Part shown: one piece after another, positions 11,140 to 52,990 of the stretch
How positions within the stretch are numbered: the stretch's first letter is position 1
Layout: every line of letters begins with the position of its first letter
Origin: Escherichia coli
GTDB taxonomy: Bacteria > Pseudomonadota > Gammaproteobacteria > Enterobacterales > Enterobacteriaceae
DNA length: 64,000 nucleotides
Direction: 5' to 3' (one strand)
Assembly: GCF_003018235.1 (NCBI RefSeq)
Contig: NZ_CP027437.1
Made by a program: the position numbers and the translations under genes
The notes under the pieces: generated by a model
Told to the model about the DNA's origin: nothing
Seen by the model: the letters and a program-made list of their open reading frames with translations, nothing else
The model's database searches: none

Positions 11140-11240
11140 CAGTTGAATAATCAACCGGAATAAATCTCCGGCAAATAACGACAAAAACAAAATTGGCCGC
11201 TTCGGTCAGGGCCAACTATTGCCTGAAAAAGGGTAACGAC

Positions 11241-14061: not shown

Positions 14062-15540
14062 ATGAGCTTACGTGAAAAAACCATCAGCGGCGCGAAGTGG
14101 TCGGCGATTGCCACGGTGATCATCATCGGCCTCGGGCTGGTGCAGATGACCGTGCTGGCGCGGATTATCGACAACCACCAGTTCGGTTTGCTTACCGTGT
14201 CGCTGGTGATTATCGCGCTGGCAGATACGCTTTCTGACTTCGGTATCGCTAACTCGATTATTCAGCGAAAAGAAATCAGCCACCTTGAACTCACCACGCT
14301 GTACTGGTTGAACGTCGGGCTGGGGCTTGTGGTGTGCGTGGCGGTGTTTTTGTTGAGTGATCTCATTGGTGACGTGCTGAATAACCCGGACCTGGCACCG
14401 TTGATTAAAACATTGTCGCTGGCGTTTGTGGTGATCCCCCACGGGCAACAGTTCCGCGCGTTGATGCAGAAGGAGCTGGAGTTCAACAAAATCGGCATGA
14501 TCGAAACCAGCGCGGTGCTGGCGGGCTTTACTTTTACGGTGGTTAGCGCCCATTTCTGGCCGCTGGCGATGACCGCGATCCTCGGTTATCTGGTCAATAG
14601 TGCGGTGAGAACGCTGCTATTTGGCTACTTTGGACGCAAAATTTATCGCCCCGGTCTGCATTTCTCGCTGGCGTCGGTGGCACCGAACTTACGCTTTGGT
14701 GCCTGGCTGACGGCGGACAGCATCATCAACTATCTCAATACCAACCTTTCAACGCTGGTGCTGGCGCGTATTCTCGGCGCGGGCGTGGCAGGGGGATACA
14801 ACCTGGCGTACAACGTGGCCGTTGTGCCACCGATGAAGCTGAACCCAATCATCACCCGCGTGTTGTTTCCGGCATTCGCCAAAATTCAGGACGATACCGA
14901 AAAGCTGCGTGTTAACTTCTACAAGCTGCTGTCGGTAGTGGGGATTATCAACTTTCCGGCGCTGCTGGGGCTGATGGTGGTGTCGAATAACTTTGTACCG
15001 CTGGTCTTTGGTGAGAAGTGGAACAGCATTATTCCGGTGCTGCAATTGCTGTGTGTGGTGGGTCTGCTGCGCTCAGTGGGTAACCCGATTGGTTCGCTGC
15101 TGATGGCGAAAGCACGGGTGGATATCAGCTTTAAATTCAACGTATTCAAAACCTTTCTGTTTATTCCGGCGATTGTTATAGGTGGGCAGATGGCGGGCGC
15201 AATCGGCGTCACGCTTGGCTTCCTGCTGGTGCAGATTATCAACACCATTCTCAGTTACTTCGTGATGATTAAACCGGTGCTCGGTTCCAGTTATCGCCAG
15301 TACATCCTGAGTTTGTGGCTACCGTTTTATCTCTCGCTGCCGACGCTGGTGGTCAGTTATGCGCTGGGCATTGTGCTGAAAGGGCAACTGGCGCTGGGGA
15401 TGCTGCTGGCGGTGCAAATAGCCGCGGGCGTGCTGGCGTTTGTAGTGATGATTGTGCTGTCGCGCCATCCGCTGGTGGTGGAAGTGAAGCGTCAGTTTTG
15501 TCGCAGCGAAAAAATGAAAATGCTTTTACGGGCGGGGTGA
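14062..15540 (+). CDS. wzxC: Colanic acid repeat-unit flippase
   Basis: 492 aa polytopic membrane protein of the Wzx/MOP type at conserved position. Confidence 0.9.
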   Translation: MSLREKTISGAKWSAIATVIIIGLGLVQMTVLARIIDNHQFGLLTVSLVIIALADTLSDFGIANSIIQRKEISHLELTTLYWLNVGLGLVVCVAVFLLSDLIGDVLNNPDLAPLIKTLSLAFVVIPHGQQFRALMQKELEFNKIGMIETSAVLAGFTFTVVSAHFWPLAMTAILGYLVNSAVRTLLFGYFGRKIYRPGLHFSLASVAPNLRFGAWLTADSIINYLNTNLSTLVLARILGAGVAGGYNLAYNVAVVPPMKLNPIITRVLFPAFAKIQDDTEKLRVNFYKLLSVVGIINFPALLGLMVVSNNFVPLVFGEKWNSIIPVLQLLCVVGLLRSVGNPIGSLLMAKARVDISFKFNVFKTFLFIPAIVIGGQMAGAIGVTLGFLLVQIINTILSYFVMIKPVLGSSYRQYILSLWLPFYLSLPTLVVSYALGIVLKGQLALGMLLAVQIAAGVLAFVVMIVLSRHPLVVEVKRQFCRSEKMKMLLRAG

Positions 15541-15559
15541 GTTGCTGTTTTCGGTTCCG

Positions 15560-15850
15560 GCAATGGTTGCCGGATGCGGCGTAAAACGCCTTATCCGTCC
15601 TACGGTTCTGTGCTTGGGACTTGTAGGCCTGATAAGACGCGCCAGCGTCGCATCAGGCACTAAATGCCGGATGCGGCGTAAAACGCCTTATCTGTCCTAC
15701 GGTTCTGTGCTTGGGACTTGTAGGCCTGATAAGACGCGTCAGCGTCGCATCAGGCACTGAATGCCGGATGCGGCGTTAACGCCTTATCCGTCCTACGGTT
15801 CTGTGCTCGGATCTTTAGGCATGATAAGACGCGTCAGCGTCGCATCAGGC
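15560..15850. repeat. Three tandem ~96 bp REP-containing units (BIME-like) between wzxC and wcaK
   Basis: Direct repetition of gccggatgcggcg...cttatccgtcctacggttctgtgc...gcctgataagacgcg(c/t)cagcgtcgcatcaggc, three times with few substitutions. Confidence 0.8.
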
Positions 15851-15910
15851 AAAAGCGGCAACGAAAACAACAAACACAGCTTCAGCTGGCATCAAATTTA
15901 TGAGGAAAAA

Positions 15911-17191
15911 ATGAAATTACTTATTCTGGGCAACCACACTTGCGGCAATCGTGGCGACAGCGCCATCCTGCGCGGCTTACTTGATGCCATCAACATCCTC
16001 AATCCACATGCCGAAGTGGACGTGATGAGCCGCTATCCGGTCAGTTCTTCCTGGCTGCTCAACCGCCCGGTAATGGGCGATCCGCTGTTCCTGCAAATGA
16101 AAAAACACAACAGCGCGGCAGGCGTTGTCGGGCGCGTTAAAAAAGTCCTCCGTCGCCGCTACCAGCATCAGGTATTGCTCTCACGCGTCACCGACACTGG
16201 CAAGCTGCGTAATATCGCCATCGCCCAGGGATTCACCGACTTCGTGCGCCTGCTGTCAGGTTACGACGCCATTATTCAGGTCGGCGGATCGTTTTTTGTC
16301 GATCTCTATGGCGTGCCGCAGTTTGAACATGCACTTTGCACTTTCATGGCGAAAAAGCCGCTGTTTATGATTGGTCACAGTGTTGGTCCCTTCCAGGATG
16401 AGCAATTTAACCAACTGGCGAACTATGTCTTTGGTCATTGCGACGCGCTGATCCTGCGCGAATCGGTCAGCCTTGATCTGATGAAACGTAGCAATATCAC
16501 TACCGCAAAAGTTGAACATGGCGTCGATACCGCGTGGCTGGTCGATCACCACACAGAAGATTTCACCGCCAGCTATGCCGTCCAACACTGGCTGGACGTT
16601 GCCGCACAACAGAAAACGGTAGCAATTACCCTGCGCGAACTGGCACCGTTCGACAAACGTCTCGGCACCACTCAACAAGCGTATGAAAAAGCCTTTGCCG
16701 GGGTGGTCAATCGCATTCTCGACGAAGGGTATCAGGTGATTGCGCTTTCCACCTGTACGGGCATCGACAGCTATAACAAAGACGATCGCATGGTGGCGCT
16801 CAATCTGCGCCAGCACATCAGCGATCCTGCCCGTTACCACGTAGTGATGGATGAACTCAACGATCTGGAAATGGGCAAAATTCTCGGTGCCTGTGAACTC
16901 ACCGTCGGTACGCGCCTGCACTCTGCCATTATCTCGATGAATTTTGCCACTCCGGCAATTGCCATCAACTACGAACATAAATCCGCCGGGATTATGCAGC
17001 AGCTGGGACTACCGGAGATGGCAATTGATATCCGTCATTTATTAGACGGCAGCCTGCAAGCGATGGTTGCGGATACCTTAGGCCAACTTCCGGCGCTGAA
17101 CGCACGACTTAGCGAAGCCGTCAGTCGCGAACGTCAGACGGGAATGCAGATGGTGCAATCTGTGCTTGAGCGCATCGGGGAGGCGAAATGA
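15911..17191 (+). CDS. wcaK: Colanic acid pyruvyl transferase WcaK
   Basis: 426 aa from ATG 15911 (MKLLILGNHTCGNRGD) with gaggaaaaa RBS; the longer track ORF starts inside the REP array. Confidence 0.9.
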   Translation: MKLLILGNHTCGNRGDSAILRGLLDAINILNPHAEVDVMSRYPVSSSWLLNRPVMGDPLFLQMKKHNSAAGVVGRVKKVLRRRYQHQVLLSRVTDTGKLRNIAIAQGFTDFVRLLSGYDAIIQVGGSFFVDLYGVPQFEHALCTFMAKKPLFMIGHSVGPFQDEQFNQLANYVFGHCDALILRESVSLDLMKRSNITTAKVEHGVDTAWLVDHHTEDFTASYAVQHWLDVAAQQKTVAITLRELAPFDKRLGTTQQAYEKAFAGVVNRILDEGYQVIALSTCTGIDSYNKDDRMVALNLRQHISDPARYHVVMDELNDLEMGKILGACELTVGTRLHSAIISMNFATPAIAINYEHKSAGIMQQLGLPEMAIDIRHLLDGSLQAMVADTLGQLPALNARLSEAVSRERQTGMQMVQSVLERIGEAK

Positions 17192-21154: not shown

Positions 21155-21193
21155 TAGTATGCTGGTAGCTGTTGAGCCAGGGGCGGTAGCGTG
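21155..21193 (+). promoter_or_regulatory. JUMPstart element with ops site (GGCGGTAGCGTG) upstream of the O-antigen operon
   Basis: gctggtagctgttgagccaggggcggtagcgtg read directly; matches the known JUMPstart/ops consensus used by RfaH. Confidence 0.85.
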
Positions 21194-21322: not shown

Positions 21323-22339
21323 ATGACTATACTTGTAACAGGCGGCGCTGGTTATATTGGTTCACATACCGTTCTACAATTAATTGAGGGCGGGTATGAT
21401 GTTGTTGTGCTTGATAACCTGAGTAATTCATCCCAAGAGTCACTACATCGCGTTGGGTCTTTGGTTTCGAAAAATATTCCATTCATTAAGGCTGATATCA
21501 ACGATAAACAAAAGCTTGAAGAAGTTTTTAAAAACTACGATATTGATGCAGTGATTCATTTTGCAGGTTTAAAATCTGTTGGTGAATCAGTAAAGAAACC
21601 ACTGGAATATTACATTAATAATGTCAGTGGAACCCTTACCCTGCTTGAAGTTATGAAGCAAGCAAATGTTTACAAATTCATTTTTAGTTCGTCTGCGACT
21701 GTTTATGGTAATCATTCTCCGGTTCCCAATCTGGAGGAATATCCTATTGGAAATGCTTCATGCCCCTATGGAACTACTAAAGTCATGCTGGAGCAGGTTT
21801 TATCAGACTATGCGAAGTCAGATGATAAATTAAAAATTATTGCTCTGCGTTATTTTAATCCTACAGGTGCGCATCCTAGTGGTCTTATTGGGGAGGACCC
21901 GAACGGCATTCCAAACAATCTTGTTCCTTATATTTCTCAGGTTGCTATTGGCAAATTAGAAAAACTGTCCGTTTATGGTGGCGATTATGAAACTATTGAT
22001 GGAACAGGAGTACGCGACTTTATCCATGTGGTAGATCTTGCCGCAGGCCATGTTAGTGCTTTAAGGTATATTGATAAATTACAAGGATATGACATTTTTA
22101 ATCTTGGTACTGGCACTGGTGTATCAGTTTTACAAGTAATCGATGCCTTTGAAAAAGCAAGTAATCAGAAAGTTAATTATGAAATTGTCGCCAGACGTGA
22201 GGGCGATATAGGATCTTCTTGGGCTGATGTATCTAAAGCAGAAAGGATTTTAGGCTGGAAATCCAAGTACAATATTGAAGATATGATGGTCCATACCTGG
22301 AATTGGCAAAAACAAAACCCTAATGGCTATGGAAGTTAG
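21323..22339 (+). CDS. gne: UDP-hexose / UDP-N-acetylhexosamine 4-epimerase (GalE/Gne family)
   Basis: 338 aa; Rossmann GGAGYIGSH and SDR catalytic region; first gene after galF. Confidence 0.8.
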   Translation: MTILVTGGAGYIGSHTVLQLIEGGYDVVVLDNLSNSSQESLHRVGSLVSKNIPFIKADINDKQKLEEVFKNYDIDAVIHFAGLKSVGESVKKPLEYYINNVSGTLTLLEVMKQANVYKFIFSSSATVYGNHSPVPNLEEYPIGNASCPYGTTKVMLEQVLSDYAKSDDKLKIIALRYFNPTGAHPSGLIGEDPNGIPNNLVPYISQVAIGKLEKLSVYGGDYETIDGTGVRDFIHVVDLAAGHVSALRYIDKLQGYDIFNLGTGTGVSVLQVIDAFEKASNQKVNYEIVARREGDIGSSWADVSKAERILGWKSKYNIEDMMVHTWNWQKQNPNGYGS

Positions 22340-22372
22340 TACCTATTGATTTAATATTATAATGGCGTATCA

Positions 22373-24589
22373 ATGAATTTATTTTTCATAGTCGATAAGT
22401 TGGATTGGGCATTCGGTAGAATAGCTCAAAATATAGCAACAGAATTAAGTAGCTTTAATGTAAAAATAGTTTGCACCGATGATTTTAAAACTGTGGCAGA
22501 CTTTGCTATGCACATGGATAAAAACGTAAAAGAAAAGAGTATATTACACTTCTTTTGGCGTGATTATCTTATGGAAGTGATGAACTTCACTCAGCGGAAT
22601 CCCCAATATAAAGAAATTTTGATCAGAAATATTATCACAACGCATATTCCTGATCATCTTTTTACTTATGATGATATCGCAAACTATGAGAGAAGAATTC
22701 CTCTTATGAATTTTGTGGATGGGTATTTTGTTACATCCGGAAAATTGAAAGAGCTATATTCTGAACTGTCTGATTTTCCGCCTCCTCATAGCGTTATCTA
22801 TGATAATCCAGAAATTCCTATGAGCGAGGTAAAAAGCTATGATAATCATGATAGAAAAAAAATCGTATGGATTGGCAATAGTAAATGGGGAGAATACCTC
22901 GGTTACCAAGATTATAAAGGCCTGAATACAATAGTTTTGCCGGCTCTAGATAAATTAAAAAAATCTGGATATACATTTGATTATATTGAGTTTGATAGTT
23001 CTAAAGGCAAGACCGATCGTGAGGTAATTCTTAAAACACTTTCTGATGCAGATATTCTACTGATCAGTTCGAAATGTGAAGGTACACCATTGCCACTTCT
23101 TGAAGCAATGGCAAACAGTTGTGCTGTTGTGTCGACAGATGTTGGTATAGCAAATGAAGTATTACCTGAAAAGCAGTTACAGTATATTGTGTCTCGGGAT
23201 GCAGAGGCATTTTATTATTCGTTGAAAGGTCTTCTTGACGATCAACGCGGTCTTGAAGAGTTACAAAGAATGAATTATATAGCGTATCGTCAGCAATTTG
23301 TAGATGATAGCCTTATAGGTGACAAATGGGCATTGTTCTTCAAAGATATGTGTTCAAAATCGCAAAATGAATTTAAGAATATATTCCTTCGCGAGCAGAA
23401 AATTCCATCATTTAAAGAACGATTGATATCAAAAGCTATTTATAATCTAAGCAGACTAGCTCTTCGTTTGAATTTGATGAATACGCTAAAACAATATAGC
23501 CTGCTACGAAAAATATATTATAAGGTTGCAGGAACAACTACAAATCAAGTTGATTATGATTTGTTGGATGAATTTTATAGTAATGCAATATCAGATAAAG
23601 AAGTATTAGCATTTTACTCTGCATATTGGTCTGGTGTTGCCACATCAACAGCTAGTTTCTTTAAAGATGATAGTATCCAATATCCATATTATTCATATGA
23701 GTTCCCACAGGTTTCTAATCATGTCTATCTAAACAGATTAGCAGAAAAACTTGCTGAATCTAAAACACTAAAAAGTGTGATCATGAGCGGTGGAACACAA
23801 TTACAAATGGAACTTGCCAAAAAAATTAAGGCATTAAGTCCGAAAATAAAAATATTTTTTGCATGGCATGGTTCACCTGCTCAGTGGGTTGACTCCTCGC
23901 AATATTCAACGTTTGATGGATGGTATGAACTTTACCGAGAGCGAATTGCTGATGGGGTCATCTCGTTTAAGCCTGAGCTAGATGAAATACTCAATGCTTA
24001 CGGTATTCGTGCATTCTCAGTATCGAATTATGCTGTATCAGGCTCCTCGTTTTCTAAAAAATTAGCTGCACCTGATTCTGCCAATTTCCGCGTAGGTTTG
24101 TTCGCTGCAATGTTCAGTTGGTATAAAAATCCATTTCCTCAATTACTAGCAATTGGTTCATTAAAAGGATGTGAGCTAGTTACAAACTTGCATCTTGAAC
24201 ATAATATGAAGTGGGTTACTTCAAATATCAAGCTTACGACATTATCAGAAAATTTAAATAATAAGCGGTTTATCGAACTGCTATCTCGTTTACATGTTAT
24301 ATGCTATGTAACGAATACGGAATGTTCGCCAATGATAGCGTTGGAATCTGCAAGTGTCGGAACTCCATGCATTGTGGGGCCAGCTGGAAACATATATAAA
24401 GGTTTTCCTGAGTTAGAATTGTATTTGGTTGAAAAAGAGGTTGATAATCCAACTGCAATCAGGAATCGGTTACAATTAGTTCGTGATAATTACGAGGAAA
24501 TTACAGTTTTGCTTAATGCATTTGTTTTGGAATACAATTCCCGGCTAGAATTAATTAAAGAAAAGATGTATAAAGAGTTGAAGCAATGA
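22373..24589 (+). CDS. Two-domain glycosyltransferase (two GT-B modules), candidate O-antigen chain-extending enzyme
   Basis: 738 aa; N-terminal module with GNSKW ... EGTPLPLLEAMA motif, C-terminal module with ECSPMIALESASVGTP; low GC. Confidence 0.65.
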   Translation: MNLFFIVDKLDWAFGRIAQNIATELSSFNVKIVCTDDFKTVADFAMHMDKNVKEKSILHFFWRDYLMEVMNFTQRNPQYKEILIRNIITTHIPDHLFTYDDIANYERRIPLMNFVDGYFVTSGKLKELYSELSDFPPPHSVIYDNPEIPMSEVKSYDNHDRKKIVWIGNSKWGEYLGYQDYKGLNTIVLPALDKLKKSGYTFDYIEFDSSKGKTDREVILKTLSDADILLISSKCEGTPLPLLEAMANSCAVVSTDVGIANEVLPEKQLQYIVSRDAEAFYYSLKGLLDDQRGLEELQRMNYIAYRQQFVDDSLIGDKWALFFKDMCSKSQNEFKNIFLREQKIPSFKERLISKAIYNLSRLALRLNLMNTLKQYSLLRKIYYKVAGTTTNQVDYDLLDEFYSNAISDKEVLAFYSAYWSGVATSTASFFKDDSIQYPYYSYEFPQVSNHVYLNRLAEKLAESKTLKSVIMSGGTQLQMELAKKIKALSPKIKIFFAWHGSPAQWVDSSQYSTFDGWYELYRERIADGVISFKPELDEILNAYGIRAFSVSNYAVSGSSFSKKLAAPDSANFRVGLFAAMFSWYKNPFPQLLAIGSLKGCELVTNLHLEHNMKWVTSNIKLTTLSENLNNKRFIELLSRLHVICYVTNTECSPMIALESASVGTPCIVGPAGNIYKGFPELELYLVEKEVDNPTAIRNRLQLVRDNYEEITVLLNAFVLEYNSRLELIKEKMYKELKQ

Positions 24590-25365
24590 AAGAATCACTA
24601 ACAGATATATATTTGTCAATAAAATCGTGGCATCTTTGGACCACATTAGGTTGGTTAGAGTTAAGACAGAGATATAAAAGATCCATTGTTGGACCATTTT
24701 GGATTACACTAAGTATGGCGGTCCTTATTATTGCCTTAGGGGTGATTTATGGAGAACTATTTAAACTAGAAGTTAAAGAATATCTTCCGATGCTTGCAAT
24801 TGGTTTGGTTTTCTGGAGCTTTATTAGTGGCGTTATAAATGAAGGATGTGTTACTTTCATATCGTCCAGCTCCTTTATAAGTCAATTGCCAACTAAAAAA
24901 TTCATATATATTATGCAAATGCTATGGCGAAATTTTATGATGCTTTGCCATAATATAATAATAGTGATTGGTGTGTTGATTATATTCAACGTTTTTTCGT
25001 TGAGGAATTTCCCTCTTTTTATACTTGGCTTTATGATCGTAGCTGTTAACTTGATCTGGATTGCAACTTTGTTCGCGATGATTTCTGTACGTTTTAGAGA
25101 TTTTCCGCAAATGGTCATGAGCTTTATGCAGGTTGTCTTTTACATAACTCCAATATTATTTTCTGGAACAATGCTGGCTAAATATAGTTTACTGCTGAAG
25201 TTAAATCCATTTGCTTGGTTTATTGAGATTATTCGATCGCCTTTAGTGGGCAAAATGCCAGAGCTATACTGCTATTATAATTCCATTATCTTTGCATGCG
25301 TAGGAACAATTATCTCTCTAATTACATTTGCAAAATGTAGAAACCGCATTGCATATTGGGTGTAA
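24586..25365 (+). CDS. wzm: O-antigen ABC transporter permease
   Basis: 259 aa, six predicted TM helices, ABC-2 type; start overlaps upstream stop. Confidence 0.85.
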   Translation: MKESLTDIYLSIKSWHLWTTLGWLELRQRYKRSIVGPFWITLSMAVLIIALGVIYGELFKLEVKEYLPMLAIGLVFWSFISGVINEGCVTFISSSSFISQLPTKKFIYIMQMLWRNFMMLCHNIIIVIGVLIIFNVFSLRNFPLFILGFMIVAVNLIWIATLFAMISVRFRDFPQMVMSFMQVVFYITPILFSGTMLAKYSLLLKLNPFAWFIEIIRSPLVGKMPELYCYYNSIIFACVGTIISLITFAKCRNRIAYWV

Positions 25366-25371
25366 ATTATT

Positions 25372-26124
25372 ATGTCTCATTTGATTGACTTGAAAGATGT
25401 GGGTGTTGAATTTCCCATTTACGACGCTAAAAGTAGATCGTTTAAATCGCAGGTGGCAAATTTAACCCGTGGTGTAATTTCTTCAAAAAAAGAAAGCAGC
25501 ACAGTTACGGTTAAATCATTGGACGGTTTGACGTTTAGTCTGAAAGAAGGTGATAAACTCGGACTTATTGGAAATAATGGTGCGGGAAAATCTACGCTAC
25601 TGAAACTCTTGGCTGGTATTTATGAACCAACATCCGGCACAATTAAACGAAAGGGTAAGATAGTTCCTCTGTTGGACATCGCTCTAGGGATGGATGATGA
25701 TTCCACAGGATACCAAAATATAAAGCTACGTGGTTTATTACTAGGTATGACGAATGCAGAAATCGAGTCCAAAATAGAAGAGATCGCTTGTTTTACTGAA
25801 CTAGGTGATTATCTGAATCTACCAATTCGTGTCTACTCTACCGGCATGCGCGTGAGATTAGCATTCGCAGTATCAACTTCAGTTGATCCAGATGTACTTC
25901 TACTCGACGAAATTATTGGTACTGGCGATGCTTCCTTCTTAAATAAAGCAAAGAAAAGATTCGAGGAATTGCAGGAGAGGGCAAAGGTAGTTGTGTTGTC
26001 TTCGCATGACAATAATGTCATTCTGAAAACTTGTAATAAAGTCCTGTGGTTAGAGGGCGGTAAACCAAAGATGATTGGAGATCCGGAAGAAGTACTAAAT
26101 AAATATATGGATAGTGTGATTTAA
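25372..26124 (+). CDS. wzt: O-antigen ABC transporter ATP-binding protein (short form, no C-terminal carbohydrate-binding module)
   Basis: 250 aa; Walker A GNNGAGKST, signature YSTGMRVRLAFA, Walker B VLLLDE; protein ends shortly after the NBD. Confidence 0.85.
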   Translation: MSHLIDLKDVGVEFPIYDAKSRSFKSQVANLTRGVISSKKESSTVTVKSLDGLTFSLKEGDKLGLIGNNGAGKSTLLKLLAGIYEPTSGTIKRKGKIVPLLDIALGMDDDSTGYQNIKLRGLLLGMTNAEIESKIEEIACFTELGDYLNLPIRVYSTGMRVRLAFAVSTSVDPDVLLLDEIIGTGDASFLNKAKKRFEELQERAKVVVLSSHDNNVILKTCNKVLWLEGGKPKMIGDPEEVLNKYMDSVI

Positions 26125-26140
26125 AAAACAGGTGGTATGA

Positions 26141-27220
26141 GTGAAAATTGATTATGTCATTACAGGCATGAATGTCGGAGGCGCGGAAATGCAGGTAGTA
26201 GAACTGCTTCTCGAGCTTAAACGGTGTGGGCATTCTGTTCGGTTAATTTCGCTTACACCACCAGTTGATTTGATCGATAGGCTAATTAGAAATAACATCC
26301 CTGTTGTTTCATTGGGGATGAAGTCCAAATTAGGTTTACCATTTGCTGCATTTAAATTAGCCAGGTTGATGAGACAGAATTCTCCAGATATTGTGCATTC
26401 GCATATGTTTCATGCCAATATCCTAGTACGTCTTGTAAGAATATTTTTGGTGGATAGTACATCTATTATTTGTACTGCGCACAGCATTCGTGAAGGTGGC
26501 AGTGCTAGAGACTGGCTTTATCGTTTGACTAATAAATTAAGTGACTTGAATACAGTCGTAAGCGATGCGGCACGGCTGCGGTTTATTAACGACAAAGTAT
26601 TTCCATCAGAGAAAACACTTACTGTTTATAATTGTATCAATATTGATCATTTTCGTATCATTGATAGACAAAGCAGGAAACGATTTCGCTGGGTAACCGT
26701 TGGGCGGCTTGTAAAAGTAAAAAATCAACTTTTGATTTTGCAAGCGATGATGAAGTTGCCACTTAGTGAACTCATCATAATTGGAGAAGGCGAGGAACGA
26801 CTCTCATTACAAACATTTATCGATCAAAATTCTCTAAGCGAGCGAGTTACTCTCTTGGGTAAAAAAGATAATGTTGTTGATTATTATCATGATTCTGATG
26901 CTTTTGTGCTGGCCTCAGACTATGAAGGATTTGCACTTGTCGTGGCCGAAGCTATGGCATGCGGATTGCCAGTTGTCGCAACAAACTGTGGTGGGCCTGC
27001 TGAAATTATTGGAAATGGACAGGATTTTGGCATAACAATTTCGGTTAATGATGTACATCACTTAACCGCTGCGATGCAACAAATTGAATCATTAGATGTT
27101 GAACAGCGTAGAGGAAGTGGCTATCGTGCTCGGAAAAGAGTCATTGAGAAATTTTCTACTAAAAAAATCGTATCTCAATGGGAAGATATCTACCTGCGCA
27201 TACAGAAAAACAGAATTTAG
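26141..27220 (+). CDS. Glycosyltransferase, GT4 family
   Basis: 359 aa; GTG start with aggtgg RBS; GT-B motif region DYEGFALVVAEAMACGLPVVAT. Confidence 0.75.
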   Translation: MKIDYVITGMNVGGAEMQVVELLLELKRCGHSVRLISLTPPVDLIDRLIRNNIPVVSLGMKSKLGLPFAAFKLARLMRQNSPDIVHSHMFHANILVRLVRIFLVDSTSIICTAHSIREGGSARDWLYRLTNKLSDLNTVVSDAARLRFINDKVFPSEKTLTVYNCINIDHFRIIDRQSRKRFRWVTVGRLVKVKNQLLILQAMMKLPLSELIIIGEGEERLSLQTFIDQNSLSERVTLLGKKDNVVDYYHDSDAFVLASDYEGFALVVAEAMACGLPVVATNCGGPAEIIGNGQDFGITISVNDVHHLTAAMQQIESLDVEQRRGSGYRARKRVIEKFSTKKIVSQWEDIYLRIQKNRI

Positions 27221-27229
27221 AATTCACCT

Positions 27230-28384
27230 ATGAAAATAGCATTAATCGGTACTACAGCAGAAAGTCTAATCCAATTCAGAAAAGAACTGATTAATTTATT
27301 ACATAAAAATGGCCATGTTGTGTATGCGTTTGCAATTGATTATGATGATGTAACAAAAGAAAAAGTTAAATCATTTGGTGCTATACCAGTACATTACTGT
27401 TTCAGTCGAACAGGGCTAAATCCATTTTCTGATATTATCAATACCTATAAATTATATAAGATTCTAAAATCACTTAAGTTGGACTTGGTATTTTCATATT
27501 TTTCAAAGCCAGCCATTTTTGGTACTTTAGCAGCAAAATTTGCAAGAATACAGAAGCGTTATGCGATGCTTGAAGGGCTTGGTTTTTTCTTTACCAATTC
27601 TGGAGGGCAGGTTTCATTAAGGAATAAATTACTAAAGAAAATATTAGTATCACTTTACAAATTAAGTTTCAGACATATTGAAAGTCTTATCTTGCTTAAT
27701 GCGGATGATAAGCGAGACCTTTTAGTTAATGCAAAAATTCAAGTCAAAAAGGTTCATATATTAGGGGGGATTGGATTAAATATGTCTGATTACCCCTACT
27801 GCCCACCGCCTGTTGATCCAGTGTCTTTCATTTTTGTCGCTAGATTTTTACAAGAAAAGGGAGTTTATGAATTTATTGAGGCTGCACAAGTAGTCAAAAA
27901 GAAATTTCCTGAAACTCATTTTTGCATGCTGGGTCATCTGGATCTCCATAATCCGGGGAGCTTAACTACAGAGCGGCTTAATGATTTGAAGTGTAATAAC
28001 ATCATTGAGTTACCTGGCCACGTTGATAACGTGCAGGAGTGGCTTGCTAAAGCGAGTGTATTTGTATTGCCTTCCTGGCGTGAAGGGTTTCCGAGGAGTA
28101 CACAGGAGGCGATGGCAATGGGACGTGCTGTCATAACCAGCGATGTGCCAGGCTGCCGAGATACAGTAGTTGATGGTGTTAATGGATTTTTGATTAAGCC
28201 ACGTTCTTCTCATGCGTTAGCGGAAAAAATGCTCTGTTTTTTACATCAACCTGAGCTAATTACCCAAATGGGGAATGCAAGTCACCAAATAGCTTTACAA
28301 CAATTTGACTCATATATAGTTAATTCAAAACTTATGAAAATACTGCGCGTAGATGATGAAAATACAAAGTCTAATGACTGTTAA
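27230..28384 (+). CDS. Glycosyltransferase, GT4 family
   Basis: 384 aa; GT-B motif region SWREGFPRSTQEAMAMGRAVITSD. Confidence 0.75.
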   Translation: MKIALIGTTAESLIQFRKELINLLHKNGHVVYAFAIDYDDVTKEKVKSFGAIPVHYCFSRTGLNPFSDIINTYKLYKILKSLKLDLVFSYFSKPAIFGTLAAKFARIQKRYAMLEGLGFFFTNSGGQVSLRNKLLKKILVSLYKLSFRHIESLILLNADDKRDLLVNAKIQVKKVHILGGIGLNMSDYPYCPPPVDPVSFIFVARFLQEKGVYEFIEAAQVVKKKFPETHFCMLGHLDLHNPGSLTTERLNDLKCNNIIELPGHVDNVQEWLAKASVFVLPSWREGFPRSTQEAMAMGRAVITSDVPGCRDTVVDGVNGFLIKPRSSHALAEKMLCFLHQPELITQMGNASHQIALQQFDSYIVNSKLMKILRVDDENTKSNDC

Positions 28385-28432
28385 ATCATACAAATAAAAC
28401 GTTATAATAAATACAATTTGGTGGGGAATATT

Positions 28433-29581
28433 ATGGAAAGATTAAATTTGAGTGAAAAACCTGCTCACTCTTTACAAGAAGCGGCTATTCATTGTGCCAG
28501 ATATGCTAATATCTTACATCTTGTTAAAGATAAAGTAGTTCTCGACATTGCCTGCGGCGAAGGATATGGCTCAGCACTATTAATGAAAGCTGGTGCTAAA
28601 CGAGTTGTGGGGGTGGACATCTCTCAAGAGTCAATTGAGCACGCAAAGAAACTTTTTGGGGGATATAATGTTGAGTTTATTGTAAGTGATGCATGTACCA
28701 TCTCAGAGCGTTATGGTGAAGATTTTTTTGATATGGTTGTTTCAATAGAGACAATAGAACACATCAATACTCCTGAAGTTTTTCTTAGTGCTATCAAAAA
28801 AACTGCTAAAGAAAATGCGATTTTCTATATAACTTGCCCTAATGATTATTGGTATTATCCAAATGATGAACAATCCAATCCGTACCATGTACGAAAATAT
28901 ACTTTTCAAGAGTTCACCGAACTTAGTACAGTGATTTTGGGAAAGAATGTTCAATGGGCATATGGTTGTTCTGCTTTTGGATTTTGTACAGTCTCAGCAA
29001 ATAATCGAGGTTTTGAAAAAATAGGTTCTTCATGGATGGAAATAAGCGATTCGGAAAATTCAATTACTGTTTTAAATACAGATATTGACGCAGTTAGTGA
29101 AAATAATTGCAGTTTTTTTGTGGGCTTATGGAATGCACCTGAAACAAATTTTAGCAATAGTACATTCCCAATAAGTATGAATGCTTATTCGCGCATGACA
29201 GAAGAGTTCGAGTCGAATGTAAGTCTGGTACTTCGTGAGGAACAGGCAGAAAATAAAAAAGCTATATCAATATTAAAACAAGATATGAAAAAGTTAACAA
29301 TGGACCTGAGAAAATCAAACCTTTTATTATTCGCATTAAAAATCGAAAATGATGCATTGCGTACTAATATTTCCGAATTGCAACAACAGCTTGCCAGGAA
29401 AATTGCGATGTATGATGAAGTAACAAATACAAATAATAATTTAGTAACTACAAATTCATCATTGATGGAAAGAGTGTCACAGATGGAAATTCCATATTAT
29501 CGATACGTAAGGCTATCCGCCCTTCTTCCGGATTTTTTGAAAAAAATGATACTTAAAATTATGCGTTTGATCAGGAAATAA
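28433..29581 (+). CDS. SAM-dependent methyltransferase with C-terminal coiled coil and amphipathic helix (WbdD-like chain terminator candidate)
   Basis: Class I MTase motif VLDIACGEGYGS; heptad-like region around residues 270-350; basic amphipathic C-terminus LPDFLKKMILKIMRLIRK; ATG 28433 with ggtgggg RBS. Confidence 0.7.
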   Translation: MERLNLSEKPAHSLQEAAIHCARYANILHLVKDKVVLDIACGEGYGSALLMKAGAKRVVGVDISQESIEHAKKLFGGYNVEFIVSDACTISERYGEDFFDMVVSIETIEHINTPEVFLSAIKKTAKENAIFYITCPNDYWYYPNDEQSNPYHVRKYTFQEFTELSTVILGKNVQWAYGCSAFGFCTVSANNRGFEKIGSSWMEISDSENSITVLNTDIDAVSENNCSFFVGLWNAPETNFSNSTFPISMNAYSRMTEEFESNVSLVLREEQAENKKAISILKQDMKKLTMDLRKSNLLLFALKIENDALRTNISELQQQLARKIAMYDEVTNTNNNLVTTNSSLMERVSQMEIPYYRYVRLSALLPDFLKKMILKIMRLIRK

Positions 29582-29583
29582 AA

Positions 29584-31665
29584 ATGTCGGCACGTTTAAA
29601 ATTATTACCAGGGGTAAAATCAACTGAATATGTGTATTCAGACCTTCATGCTTTGCTCGATTCTAATGCTGAAAGCTCGTTTGGTCCGAACATTGGTAGT
29701 GATGGTTCTAACCTAACAATAACATGTTTATCGATGAGTAGAGTTTTTCTTACTGAAAAACTTGTTAATTCTATATATCAGCATATACCTAATTTCAAAG
29801 GTGATATCCTGATTGTTGATAACGGCAGTACATTAGAAGAACTTTCAGTTTTACAAACTTTAAGTGATAGGATTCCATTACATATTAGGGTTATCGAACT
29901 TGGTAATAATTTTGGCGTAAGTGGCGGAAGAAATAAAGCGTTAGAGCATATAAAAACAGAATGGGCTATGTTTCTTGATAATGATATTTATTTTATAAAC
30001 AACCCGTTCCCGAGATTGCAAAAGGATATTTCAAAACTTGGCTGTCATTTCATCAATATGCCATTGCTTGATTCTGATGGAGAAACATTATTCGCAAATG
30101 GAGGGAATATTTTCCTCCATATTGATAATGATTCGGTGCATGTTGGTGCAGGAAGTGCATGCGTCCAGGAAAAAATAACTACATATGATGGTGAGGGCTT
30201 CCTTTCTACATTTCTCTTTGGCGGTGCGAGTGTTATTAAAATTGACTCTCTGAAAAGTTTAGGGAAGTACGATGAAAATATGTTCATTGGATTTGAGGAT
30301 ATTGATTTATCGCTTCGTCTTTACCAGTCAGGAATGAAAGTAGGTACATGTGGTGCAATATCTTTAATCCATGATCACCCCAAACCTAGTTCTAATAAAG
30401 ATAAGGATTATGAGAAAATTCGCTTCACGAAAAGTATATTAAAAGAGTCTGCGGATTATCTTGAAAATAAATGGGGAATGGTTTTCTGGTCAGCTCCAGT
30501 TGATGATTGGTTGGAAGAGAAGCAACGTAGTTTTGAACTGATAACTCAAAAAGAAAGTAACTATTCGCAAATTGATGATAATAAACAAAATGTCATTTGT
30601 GATTTTCCAGTAGCAAAACCGAGAATTGCATTGATTATTGATACTGAAAACTGGGCATTCTCAAATATAGCAAATCAAATAGTCAATCATCTGTCAGATT
30701 CGTATGATTTTACAATAATACCAACTGAAATCATTGATAATATCAGTCAGGTTATTATGATGACCAAAAATCATGATATAACTCATTTCTTCTGGCGTGA
30801 ATCGCTTAGACTTATATATGATGAATGCTATATAAACTATAACCGGGCTATTGGATTTGATGAGCTTAGTTTTAAAAAACAATACTTAGATGGAAGGATA
30901 ATAACAAGTAGTGTTTATGATCATCTATTTCTTGATGAACAAGCTATAAAGTTAAGAAAAACATTTTATAATGATTTAATAACTGCTTATACAGTTAGTT
31001 CATCAAAATTATATGATATATACTCATCAATAGCCGAGTATCCTAATCCGTCAGTTCTTGCTGAAGATGGTGTCGATTTAAAACTATTTTATCCTCTCGA
31101 TCTTGAACGCTTTGACAATATTGAGTCGAGAACATTGCGCGTAGGTTGGGCTGGTAATTCTAAATGGGCGGGAGAAGTAGAGGATTTTAAAGGTTACCAT
31201 TCTTTATTAAAGCCAGCAGTTGAGCAATTACAATCAGAAGGATTGAATATAGAGTTAGTCCTTGCTGATCGTCAGCTCGGATTTATTCCTCATGATGAAA
31301 TGGTAAATTATTATAGCCAAATTGATGTCTATGTCTGTCCTTCAAAAATTGAGGGCACACCAAACCCTGTACTCGAATCTATGGCATGTGGCGTTCCCGT
31401 GATAAGTACTGATGTCGGTGTGGTTAATGATGCGTTTGGTGATATGCAAAAAGAATGGATTTTGCCAGTTAGAAGCAAGGATGTTTTGATAGATAAACTT
31501 CGGGATTTTTATAATAGGCGTAACACAGTGGTAAAATGTTTATCTTCAGAAAATCTGCAGCAAATAAAAAAATGGGATTGGAAAGTTAAATCTGAGAACT
31601 TCCGCATTTTTTTCGACAAATTATTAGAATCTAAAAAGCACAGCAAGATAAACACTGAAATGTGA
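29584..31665 (+). CDS. Two-domain glycosyltransferase (N-terminal GT2, C-terminal GT-B module)
   Basis: 693 aa; GT2 signature DILIVDNGST ... FLDNDIYF; C-terminal module with GNSKW ... EGTPNPVLESMACGVPVISTD, paralogous to the N-terminal module of the 738 aa protein. Confidence 0.7.
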   Translation: MSARLKLLPGVKSTEYVYSDLHALLDSNAESSFGPNIGSDGSNLTITCLSMSRVFLTEKLVNSIYQHIPNFKGDILIVDNGSTLEELSVLQTLSDRIPLHIRVIELGNNFGVSGGRNKALEHIKTEWAMFLDNDIYFINNPFPRLQKDISKLGCHFINMPLLDSDGETLFANGGNIFLHIDNDSVHVGAGSACVQEKITTYDGEGFLSTFLFGGASVIKIDSLKSLGKYDENMFIGFEDIDLSLRLYQSGMKVGTCGAISLIHDHPKPSSNKDKDYEKIRFTKSILKESADYLENKWGMVFWSAPVDDWLEEKQRSFELITQKESNYSQIDDNKQNVICDFPVAKPRIALIIDTENWAFSNIANQIVNHLSDSYDFTIIPTEIIDNISQVIMMTKNHDITHFFWRESLRLIYDECYINYNRAIGFDELSFKKQYLDGRIITSSVYDHLFLDEQAIKLRKTFYNDLITAYTVSSSKLYDIYSSIAEYPNPSVLAEDGVDLKLFYPLDLERFDNIESRTLRVGWAGNSKWAGEVEDFKGYHSLLKPAVEQLQSEGLNIELVLADRQLGFIPHDEMVNYYSQIDVYVCPSKIEGTPNPVLESMACGVPVISTDVGVVNDAFGDMQKEWILPVRSKDVLIDKLRDFYNRRNTVVKCLSSENLQQIKKWDWKVKSENFRIFFDKLLESKKHSKINTEM

Positions 31666-31754: not shown

Positions 31755-33161
31755 ATGTCTAAGCAACAGATCGGCGTCATCGGTATGGCAGTAATGGGGC
31801 GCAACTTGGCGCTCAATATTGAAAGCCGTGGTTATACCGTTTCCGTATTCAACCGCTCCCGTGAAAAGACCGAAGAAGTCATTGCTGAGAATCCGGATAA
31901 GAAACTGGTTCCTTATTATACGGTAAAGGAGTTTGTTGAATCACTTGAAACTCCTCGTCGTATCCTGTTAATGGTGAAGGCGGGCGCGGGTACAGATGCT
32001 GTCATTGATTCACTTAAGCCGTATCTGGAAAAAGGTGACATCATCATTGATGGCGGTAATACTTTCTTCCAAGATACTATTCGCCGTAACCGGGAACTAT
32101 CTGCCGAAGGTTTTAATTTCATCGGCACCGGTGTGTCCGGTGGTGAAGAAGGGGCGTTGAAAGGCCCATCTATTATGCCTGGAGGTCAGAAAGAAGCGTA
32201 CGAGTTAGTTGCTCCAATATTGACTAAAATCGCGGCCATTGCTGAAGATGGCGAACCGTGCGTAACTTATATCGGCGCTGATGGTGCAGGCCATTACGTG
32301 AAAATGGTCCACAACGGCATTGAGTACGGCGATATGCAGTTGATTGCTGAAGCCTATTCTCTGCTAAAAGGTGGTCTTAACCTGTCAAACGAAGAGCTGG
32401 CAGACACTTTTACCAAGTGGAATGAAGGTGAGCTCAGCAGTTACCTGATCGACATTACCAAAGACATTTTCACCCAAAAAGATGAAGAGGGTAAATTCCT
32501 GATCGATGTGATCTTGGATGAAGCGGCTAACAAAGGCACTGGTAAATGGACCAGTCAGAGTTCTCTGGACTTGGGCGAACCGCTATCTCTGATTACCGAA
32601 TCTGTATTCGCTCGGTATATCTCCTCCCTGAAAGACCAACGCGTAGCAGCTTCTAAGGTCTTGACCGGACCTAAAGCTCAGCTTGCAGGTGACAAAGTAG
32701 AGTTTATTGAGAAAGTACGTCGTGCATTATATCTGGGGAAAATTGTGTCTTATGCACAAGGATTCTCACAATTGCGTGCTGCATCTGATGAATATAAGTG
32801 GGATCTGCAATACGGTGAGATCGCGAAGATTTTCCGTGCTGGCTGTATCATTCGTGCACAGTTCTTGCAGAAAATCACTGATGCTTATGCTAACAATGAT
32901 AAAATCGAGAACCTGCTCCTGGATCCCTACTTCAAGAATATTGCTGATGAATACCAGCAAGCTCTGCGTGATGTGGTAACCTATGCGGTACAAAATGGTA
33001 TTCCTGTACCGACGTTTGGCGCAGCTGTCGCTTATTATGACAGCTACCGTGCAGCGGTACTACCGGCGAACCTAATACAGGCGCAGCGCGATTATTTTGG
33101 TGCACATACCTATAAGCGTACTGATAAAGAAGGCGTATTCCATACGGAATGGTTGAATTGA
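31755..33161 (+). CDS. gnd: 6-phosphogluconate dehydrogenase (decarboxylating)
   Basis: 468 aa; [12 protein letters not shown]ossmann motif; higher GC than flanks. Confidence 0.97.
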
Positions 33162-50005: not shown

Positions 50006-50053
50006 TTTCTTATTCCTCTTTAAACCTGTCTGAACCGTTATCAACCGCGCAAT

Positions 50054-50090
50054 AAAAAAGCCCCCGGAAGGTGATCTTCCGGGGGCTTTC
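50054..50090 (-). terminator. his attenuator terminator hairpin
   Basis: GC-rich inverted repeat gcccccggaag...cttccgggggc followed by a T-run on the minus strand, between hisL and hisG. Confidence 0.8.
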
Positions 50091-50150
50091 TCATGCGTTC
50101 ATGCACCACTGGAAGATCTGAATGTCTTCCAGCACACATCGCCTGAAAGA

Positions 50151-50201
50151 CTAGTCAGGATGATGGTGATGATGGTGGTGTTTAAATTGAACGCGTGTCA
50201 T
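50151..50201 (-). CDS. hisL: his operon leader peptide (seven consecutive His codons)
   Basis: Minus strand reads ATG ACA CGC GTT CAA TTT AAA CAC CAC CAT CAT CAC CAT CAT CCT GAC TAG = MTRVQFKHHHHHHHPD. Confidence 0.9.
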   Translation of the reverse strand: MTRVQFKHHHHHHHPD

Positions 50202-52868: not shown

Positions 52869-52949
52869 AGAAAAATTATTATGACAAGCCTCTCATTCTC
52901 TTGTCATTTCCCCCCCATTTAGGCACAATGCGCCGCTGTCAAAAAATGA

Positions 52950-52990
52950 CTAAAAACCGACGTTTCATCAGCGTCGGTTATTTTTTGCTT
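52950..52990 (+). terminator. Rho-independent terminator after yeeY
   Basis: aaaaaccgacgtttcatcagcgtcggtt followed by tattttttg. Confidence 0.6.

Follow-up and report, generated by a model that had tools for sequence, protein, structure and literature searches.

The analyzed window, a stretch of 64,000 nt of the Escherichia coli contig NZ_CP027437.1 (RefSeq assembly GCF_003018235.1), contains the genes wzxC and wcaK of the wca operon, which are separated by a spacer of 370 nt (15541-15910). The product of wzxC matches the NCBIfam MOP-flippase equivalog PRK10459 (1-492 of 492, E 4e-251) and the product of wcaK the WcaK equivalog TIGR04006 (1-426 of 426, E 1.8e-282). The RefSeq orthologues of wcaK have a length of 1281 nt, and in every E. 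coli match the orthologous pair carries the RefSeq names wzxC and wcaK. The flanking genes given by the original prediction, which was made from the sequence alone, are thus confirmed by equivalogs and orthologues. The Shine-Dalgarno motif GAGGA in front of wcaK is kept in all BIME-bearing and empty E. coli alleles examined.

By application of the Tandem Repeats Finder, one array was detected in the window (15568-15851), with a period of 97, 2.9 copies, 94% matches, 1% indels and a score of 498. A gap-free repeat finder revealed start-to-start spacings of 97 and 95-97 in three registers. The array was parsed into three head-to-tail units of 97, 97 and 95 nt (15568-15856). It lies wholly inside the wzxC-wcaK spacer and is therefore extragenic. 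Three nearly identical copies of 96 bp had been predicted at 15560-15850. The three tandem units and, to within a few bases, the coordinates are correct, but the period is 97 and not 96. The tandem periodicity, on which the original prediction had been made to depend, is present (period 97).

Each unit joins two imperfect palindromes of opposite orientation, first a REP of the Y type and then, after a linker of 19 nt, an inverted REP of the Z2 type, and is completed by a linker of 5 nt, which reads CTAAA or CTGAA. The Y-type REP has the sequence TGCCGGATGCGGCG...CGCCTTATCCGTCCTAC on the + strand, the inverted Z2-type REP the sequence GTAGGCCTGATAAGACGCG...CGTCGCATCAGGCA. The GTAG/CTAC feet of Y and Z2 face one another across the 19-nt linker. 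Units 1 and 2 show 2 differences in 92 compared positions. Unit 3 is more diverged, and its Z2 has TTAGGCATG instead of GTAGGCCTG. As sense-strand RNA each REP is predicted to form a hairpin (-13.4 to -21.9 kcal/mol), and the fold of the whole spacer RNA reaches -179.9 kcal/mol (z = -7.2 vs dinucleotide shuffles). The left flank of the array contains CGGCAATG at 15558-15565, which resembles the tail of a Y REP, and aligns at 80% with the Z2-tail/Y-start junctions in one repeat family of the gap-free repeat finder. In the MFE fold, CCGGCAA (15557-15563) forms a small hairpin with TTGCCGG (15567-15573) at the start of the first Y REP. The coordinates of all features are listed in Table 1.

Table 1. 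Features of the wzxC-wcaK junction and of the second REP cluster (positions in the window)
Feature	Position	Strand	Remarks
wzxC, colanic acid repeat-unit flippase	14062..15540	+	stop TGA 15538-15540
Crossing ORF	15526-15660	-	from the ORF list
Left flank of array	15541..15567	+	from the sequence
Crossing ORF	15542-15760	+	from the ORF list
Y-type REP, unit 1	15568..15603	+	CTAC end 3' on + strand, "iREP" orientation; predicted RNA hairpin -15.6 kcal/mol
Linker, unit 1, 19 nt	15604..15622		GGTTCTGTGCTTGGGACTT; separates Y1 from the first Z2 at their GTAG/CTAC ends; without IHF consensus
Z2-type REP, unit 1	15623..15659	-	inverted vs Y; predicted RNA hairpin -21.9 kcal/mol on + strand transcript
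Linker joining units 1 and 2, 5 nt	15660..15664		CTAAA
Unit 2	15665..15761	+	Y 15665-15700, linker 15701-15719, Z2 15720-15756, linker CTGAA 15757-15761
Long wcaK form	from ATG 15761	+	from the ORF list; start inside unit 3
Unit 3, 95 nt	15762..15856	+	Y 15762-15796, linker 15797-15814 (18 nt), degenerate Z2 15815-15851
CGGCAACG, 8 nt	15856..15863	+	direct repeat of left-flank motif CGGCAATG
Shine-Dalgarno of wcaK, GAGGA	15902..15906	+	4 nt 5' of ATG
wcaK, colanic acid pyruvyl transferase	15911..17191	+	start ATG 15911
Second cluster, REP	~582-621
Second cluster, partial Y tail	~626-641
Second cluster, Y REP	655-691

The second REP cluster of the wca operon (582-691) is located in the spacer before the ORF 751-1590 (presumably wcaA). 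In addition, the window contains a JUMPstart element downstream of galF (21155-21193) and an O-antigen cluster of the ABC-transporter (wzm/wzt) type with large multidomain glycosyltransferases and a methyltransferase (21323-31665). The interval between gnd (31755-33161) and ugd (39991-41157) contains an additional ~6.4 kb of genes that resemble those of glycosyltransferases and epimerases. Fragments of IS3-family transposases were found at 41245-42639, the place where wzzB normally lies. Four other Rfam matches exceed their gathering scores, namely the algC RNA motif just before the manB/cpsG ORF (11187-11236), STnc490 next to the IS3 fragment (42700-42825), the His operon leader (50052-50175) and STnc240 (52914-52988).

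The open reading frames that cross the repeat had been regarded as artefacts by the original prediction, and we see practically no chance that they encode real peptides or a longer WcaK. They are open in the window, but they gave no significant family match in NCBIfam or Pfam, and the WcaK model TIGR04006 is complete from ATG 15911. The in-frame ATG 15761 is missing from all 12 other alleles examined. Among these, an in-frame upstream ATG occurs only in L002 (O27:H7), at a different position, and 8 of the 12, K-12 included, contain a stop codon in frame, 84 nt before the start of wcaK. The period of 97 nt is not a multiple of 3, thus the reading frame shifts with each added copy. The true start of wcaK is ATG 15911 and not ATG 15761, and the array accounts for the spurious ORFs as well as for the false long form of wcaK.

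BIME-2 elements have been defined as y and z2 REPs in inverse orientation, which occur in multiple tandem copies with short linkers and in strain-variable number, and BIME-1 elements as one y/z1 pair separated by a long L linker, in which an IHF site is frequent (Ton-Hoang et al., PMC3333891). The array agrees with BIME-2 in every sequence criterion and does not conform to the definition of BIME-1. The Y and Z2 REPs were each matched three times, where they were expected, all Y on the + strand and all Z2 on the - strand. The linkers between them have 5 nt and 19 nt, the latter being shortened to 18 nt in unit 3. The GTAG tetranucleotide, a recognition feature of RayT and also characteristic of BIME-2, is kept in five of the six REPs, the last Z2 having TTAG instead. 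Beside the 2.9 tandem copies in the window, 0 to 6 copies occur among E. coli genomes. Y and Z2 REPs from other places in the genome can also be aligned with the six palindromes of the array. For E. coli K-12 MG1655, REP144 is listed at 2118467-2118652 in the tandem pair wzxC/wcaK (Harris et al., 2026, bioRxiv 10.64898/2026.03.23.713779, supplementary tables), and a 185-nt BIME-2 interval that was equated with it is contained in Topo-seq tables (Sutormin et al.). Judged by its sequence, the array is a BIME-2 at the same locus as REP144 of K-12. The earlier identification as REP/BIME was correct, as seen from the alternating inverted Y and Z2 REPs, the K-12 orthologue REP144 and the similarity of the unit to REP325 (88-89%).

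Binding of IHF and gyrase had been attributed to the array as well. The first of these properties belongs to the L linker of BIME-1 (PMC3333891) and does not apply here. The IHF consensus WATCAANNNNTTR is absent from 15541-15910, and its sole match in the window is located at 35469. An assignment of the array to BIME-1 or to the IHF-binding RIP elements was considered and rejected, based on the linkers of 19 and 5 nt, the tandem units and the missing WATCAANNNNTTR. Gyrase binding is true of the BIME-2 class, in which cleavage sites are over-represented, preferentially at y REPs and independent of transcription, but only a subset of BIME-2s is cleaved (PMC6379681). At this locus it seems to be weak. 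The 185-nt interval 2121726-2121911, which was equated with REP144 by its length and the coordinate offset, contained 0, 0, 0 and 1 cleavage sites in four conditions, the single site with oxolinic acid, in experiments in which the wca operon was uninduced (Sutormin et al.). From the behavior of the class it could be supposed that the array is a strong gyrase site, absorbing positive supercoils ahead of the polymerase in the 20-gene operon, or a topological insulator. Given the restriction to a subset of BIME-2s and the counts in the matched K-12 interval, we regard this as improbable.

The Rfam model naRNA4 (RF02564) matches the array above its gathering threshold of 59.5 on the minus strand only (15723-15793, 73.1 bits; 15626-15697, 65.7 bits). 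The plus-strand matches remain below this threshold. Since the model was built from REP325 and the array lies on the opposite strand, scores above the threshold occur only on the minus strand. The two matches might suggest genes for HU-binding, nucleoid-associated small RNAs of the naRNA4 kind on the minus strand, which we consider highly unlikely. Any BIME-2 unit in that orientation matches a model made from REP325 units, and relative to the wca operon the matches are antisense. Neither strand showed a promoter-like site, and a scan of 15000-16500 against a shuffled background revealed no sigma70-like promoter. Moreover, the role of HU/naRNA in chromosome compaction was not reproduced in a 2026 preprint (bioRxiv 10.64898/2026.03.23.713779). 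The matches are to be ascribed to repeat homology and should not be annotated as an sRNA gene.

The copy number of the units was surveyed in 5,426 complete RefSeq E. coli genomes. Only the two gene flanks were used as queries and the gap between their matches was taken as the spacer length; this gap could have been too long for joining in at most 19 of 4,641 genomes. In the fetched example alleles the spacer length tracks whole units. Spacers of 70 nt (e.g., ET826), 179 nt, 275 nt (e.g., K-12), 370/371 nt (e.g., the window and O27:H7 B4103-1), 468 nt, 564 nt and 662 nt hold 0, 1, 2, 3, 4, 5 and 6 Y/Z2 pairs, respectively. Small variants comprise a 34-nt deletion inside Z2, a 9-nt duplication and a deletion of 11-12 nt. 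The copy number was determined in a sample of 118 evenly spaced rows, which are phylogenetically non-independent and include many K-12 or O157 derivatives. Two copies were found in 36 genomes, one copy in 21, four in 16, no copy in 12, five in 11, and three and six copies in 7 genomes each, and 8 genomes (~7%) contain an unrelated spacer of 161 nt. With 7 of 118 genomes, the three-copy state of the window is thus among the rarer alleles. The strain-dependent variation that had been anticipated for this spacer was observed, with 0 to 6 units in the sampled genomes. In 691 of the 5,426 genomes no wcaK match was obtained by sensitive blastn, so the distal colanic acid genes are missing from about 13% of the complete E. 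coli genomes. A plausible cause of this absence would be that group 1 capsule loci have taken their place.

Units 1 and 2 are nearest neighbours within the array of the window (2 differences) and have exact counterparts in L002 (O27:H7). Both resemble unit 1 of K-12, and unit 3 is closer to the terminal unit 2 of K-12 than to its unit 1. This pattern indicates that the third copy of the window arose via tandem duplication of the first unit. The array is bracketed by the motifs CGGCAATG and CGGCAACG, and the 0-copy allele (L005:401-470) carries the CGGCAACG motif once only. A target-site duplication was considered for this bracket and rejected, because the motif is the normal tail of an inverted Y REP. 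Tails of the CGGCAACG type were also found in REP325, in Citrobacter amalonaticus and in the wzc-wcaA REP cluster of the window. Therefore, the bracketing repeat is not readable as a transposition footprint, and a deletion between REP tails explains the 0-copy state equally well as an insertion. The array is presumably a non-autonomous repeat, for which the spacer is a permissive place within the long wca operon. Its expansion and contraction may occur by unequal recombination or slippage between the 97-nt units, or by strand transfer by RayT (TnpA-REP).

In addition, the same junction was analyzed in other genera by a scan of GTDB species genomes with a degenerate DNA pattern for the N-terminus of WcaK. 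The scan yielded at least 120 loci; the matches listed include no E. albertii, E. fergusonii or Shigella. Among the matches listed, 71 non-E. coli Enterobacteriaceae have wzxC directly upstream, with a median spacer of 30 nt (range 13-166). Most species listed keep a spacer of 13-60 nt, and the Y/Z2 cores of E. coli were found in none of these 71 spacers. The short spacers free of these cores indicate that the BIME-2 is an acquisition of the Escherichia lineage. Other repeats are present in spacers of at least 100 nt in eleven species among the matches listed. An inverted REP pair occurs in Citrobacter amalonaticus and a single REP-like palindrome in Salmonella arizonae. Elements of the type CCCTCTCCC...GGGAGAGGG were found in Lelliottia, Pluralibacter, Kosakonia and others, and C/G-tract inverted repeats are located at the junction in Lelliottia, Pluralibacter, Kosakonia and Huaxiibacter.

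The 161-nt spacer of E. coli C41(DE3), a BL21 derivative (L007:401-561), contains a C/G-tract element like that of the Lelliottia group, CCCTCACCCTAACCCTCTCCCC...GGGGCGAGGGG. The same spacer is present in ATCC 11775 and complete in 275 E. coli genomes (~5% of the complete set). The core of its element is found dispersed over the genome, at a median of 14 places, and we take this repeat to resemble "Box C". This spacer comes with a different ribosome-binding site of wcaK, GAGGTCATA, as in other genera, and seems to be an imported allele or one of ancestral type. Evidently, the wzxC-wcaK junction is a permissive site which was repeatedly colonised by small repeats.

It had also been suggested that the array may set the relative expression of the distal wca genes. 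The array would be co-transcribed from the Rcs/RfaH-controlled wza promoter, and within the polycistronic mRNA it is predicted to form six hairpins with energies from -13 to -22 kcal/mol. The expression evidence for the junction concerns the 2-copy allele of K-12 and consists of fold-changes or pooled base means, not of absolute cross-junction measurements. In K-12 with the Rcs regulon activated by colicin M, log2 ratios of 7.12 (wza), 4.82 (wcaJ), 4.45 (wzxC), 4.45 (wcaK), 3.63 (wcaL) and 2.71 (wcaM) were reported, so that induction falls smoothly along the operon and shows no step across the BIME (PMC3599342). In uninduced K-12 cells, the DESeq base means are 37.5 for wcaJ and 36.2 for wzxC upstream, and 90.9 for wcaK, 161.5 for wcaL and 144.3 for wcaM downstream (bioRxiv 10.64898/2026.03.23.713779). 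The values downstream of REP144 are 2.5- to 4.5-fold higher than those of wcaJ/wzxC, which hints at an internal promoter or differential stability. For K-12 the suggested control of the distal genes is therefore without support, as wzxC and wcaK are induced alike and the downstream base means are higher. An in vitro binding site of Rho/NusG, antisense to the 3' end of wzxC, abuts REP144 at 2118651-2118749 (bioRxiv 10.64898/2026.03.23.713779).

No convincing intrinsic terminator, i.e., a hairpin with a U tract, was found in 15000-16500 (2 found vs 1.7 expected from shuffled sequence). In the array, the 5-bp inner stem of the second Y REP, followed by TTATCTGT, gave the sole terminator-like match, which does not qualify as an intrinsic terminator. 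The sense strand of the array is not C-rich (C/G 0.93). According to Liang, Rudd and Deutscher in 2015, REPs near stop codons reportedly stall ribosomes, with a rule of 15 nt; we assume that this rule would not apply here, as the wzxC stop precedes the start of the first hairpin by 17 nt.

A regulatory function inside the operon would mean that the array stabilises the wza-wzxC mRNA and causes partial Rho termination before wcaK-wcaL-wcaM, with the copy number tuning the ratio of early to late enzymes. Such an activity is known from REP325, a BIME-2 array of the same family in the yjdMN operon, which attenuates the downstream gene about 8-fold, in a partly bicyclomycin-sensitive manner, and stabilises the upstream mRNA (bioRxiv 10.64898/2026.03.23.713779). 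Genome-wide, tandem gene pairs containing a REP are biased to upstream expression (bioRxiv 10.64898/2026.03.23.713779). The strong predicted structure of the spacer RNA and the drop of the induction ratio toward the end of the wca operon would fit this function, and the other structured repeats which occur independently at the junction, in several genera and in B-type E. coli, could mean that a structured element is favoured. However, the K-12 data show neither a step between wzxC and wcaK nor lower base means downstream, and the sense strand lacks the C-richness mentioned above. Rho dependence of REP325 was observed only with the array of 12 hairpins and not with fragments of 2-4 hairpins (bioRxiv 10.64898/2026.03.23.713779). 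Furthermore, transcription of the wca operon is subject to JUMPstart-RfaH antitermination (PMC9976346), and Rho-dependent attenuation at the array would presumably be weakened by it. Alleles with 0 to 6 copies and the unrelated spacer all persist in nature. Taken together, we consider this regulatory function rather unlikely. We see only a slim chance that selection repeatedly favours a structured element at the junction and that the BIME-2 copy number (0-6) acts as a heritable rheostat for wcaK-wcaL-wcaM vs the upstream genes. This reading would start from the independent arrivals at the junction, namely BIME-2 in E. coli, REP pairs in Citrobacter and Salmonella and the unrelated C/G-tract repeat in B-type E. 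coli and several other genera. In that case, the pyruvylation or the yield of colanic acid would differ between lineages with copy number.

By the best-supported reading, the array is co-transcribed and acts as a structured spacer, for the most part passively, its modulatory effect being modest at most. The K-12 data and the co-existing alleles with 0-6 copies or an unrelated spacer count in its favour. Most likely, its effect would be a small, passive one. Exonucleases acting 3'-to-5' can be slowed by the hairpins, and some Rho-dependent attenuation may result from long arrays. The RfaH-modified polymerase probably reads through the array, because no expression step is seen at the junction in K-12. 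As a whole, we consider it likely that the locus carries a BIME-2 array of three tandem Y-linker-Z2-linker units at the REP144 site, which is non-autonomous, co-transcribed and of small passive effect.

The array is already known as an element and ordinary, namely the REP144 BIME-2, present here as a three-unit allele. There is no sign of a new kind of element, and its importance lies mainly in correct annotation. With 0 to 6 copies at one site, and this in an operon that is inducible and controlled by RfaH, nature offers an allelic series for examining whether attenuation by REP arrays scales with the number of hairpins, a question left by the work on REP325.

Among the known systems, REP144 of K-12 shares with the window the genes, the unit of Y, 19 nt, Z2 and 5 nt, the flanks and the ribosome-binding site of wcaK. 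It differs by having two units in a 275-nt spacer instead of three in a 370-nt spacer. In the window, the unit resembling K-12 unit 1 is duplicated, and the last Z2 has two substitutions in the stem and GTAG. BIME-1 (Y-L-Z1), to which the RIP/RIB elements binding IHF belong, is also a pair of inverted REPs, but it occurs in single copy with a long L linker containing an IHF site, in contrast to the tandem array with its Z2 partner and linkers of 19 and 5 nt. The dispersed C/G-tract repeat CCCTCTCCCC...GGGGCGAGGGG of E. coli B/C41(DE3), ATCC 11775 and several other genera is similar to the array in its location at the same junction, its structure and its many genomic sites. However, it belongs to an unrelated sequence family, is not tandemly amplified and is accompanied by the wcaK ribosome-binding site GAGGTCATA. 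In REP325 of K-12 (naRNA1-6, yjdM-yjdN), the model BIME-2, Y and Z2 REPs likewise alternate, the tandem unit of about 100 nt is 88-89% identical over 92 nt, and the location is inside an operon between two co-directional genes, as for the array of the window. In contrast to the wca array, REP325 is made up of six units (12 hairpins), its period is 100 nt, the linker on the non-GTAG side is longer and the orientation with respect to transcription is the opposite one. The attenuator and stabiliser activity was demonstrated for REP325.
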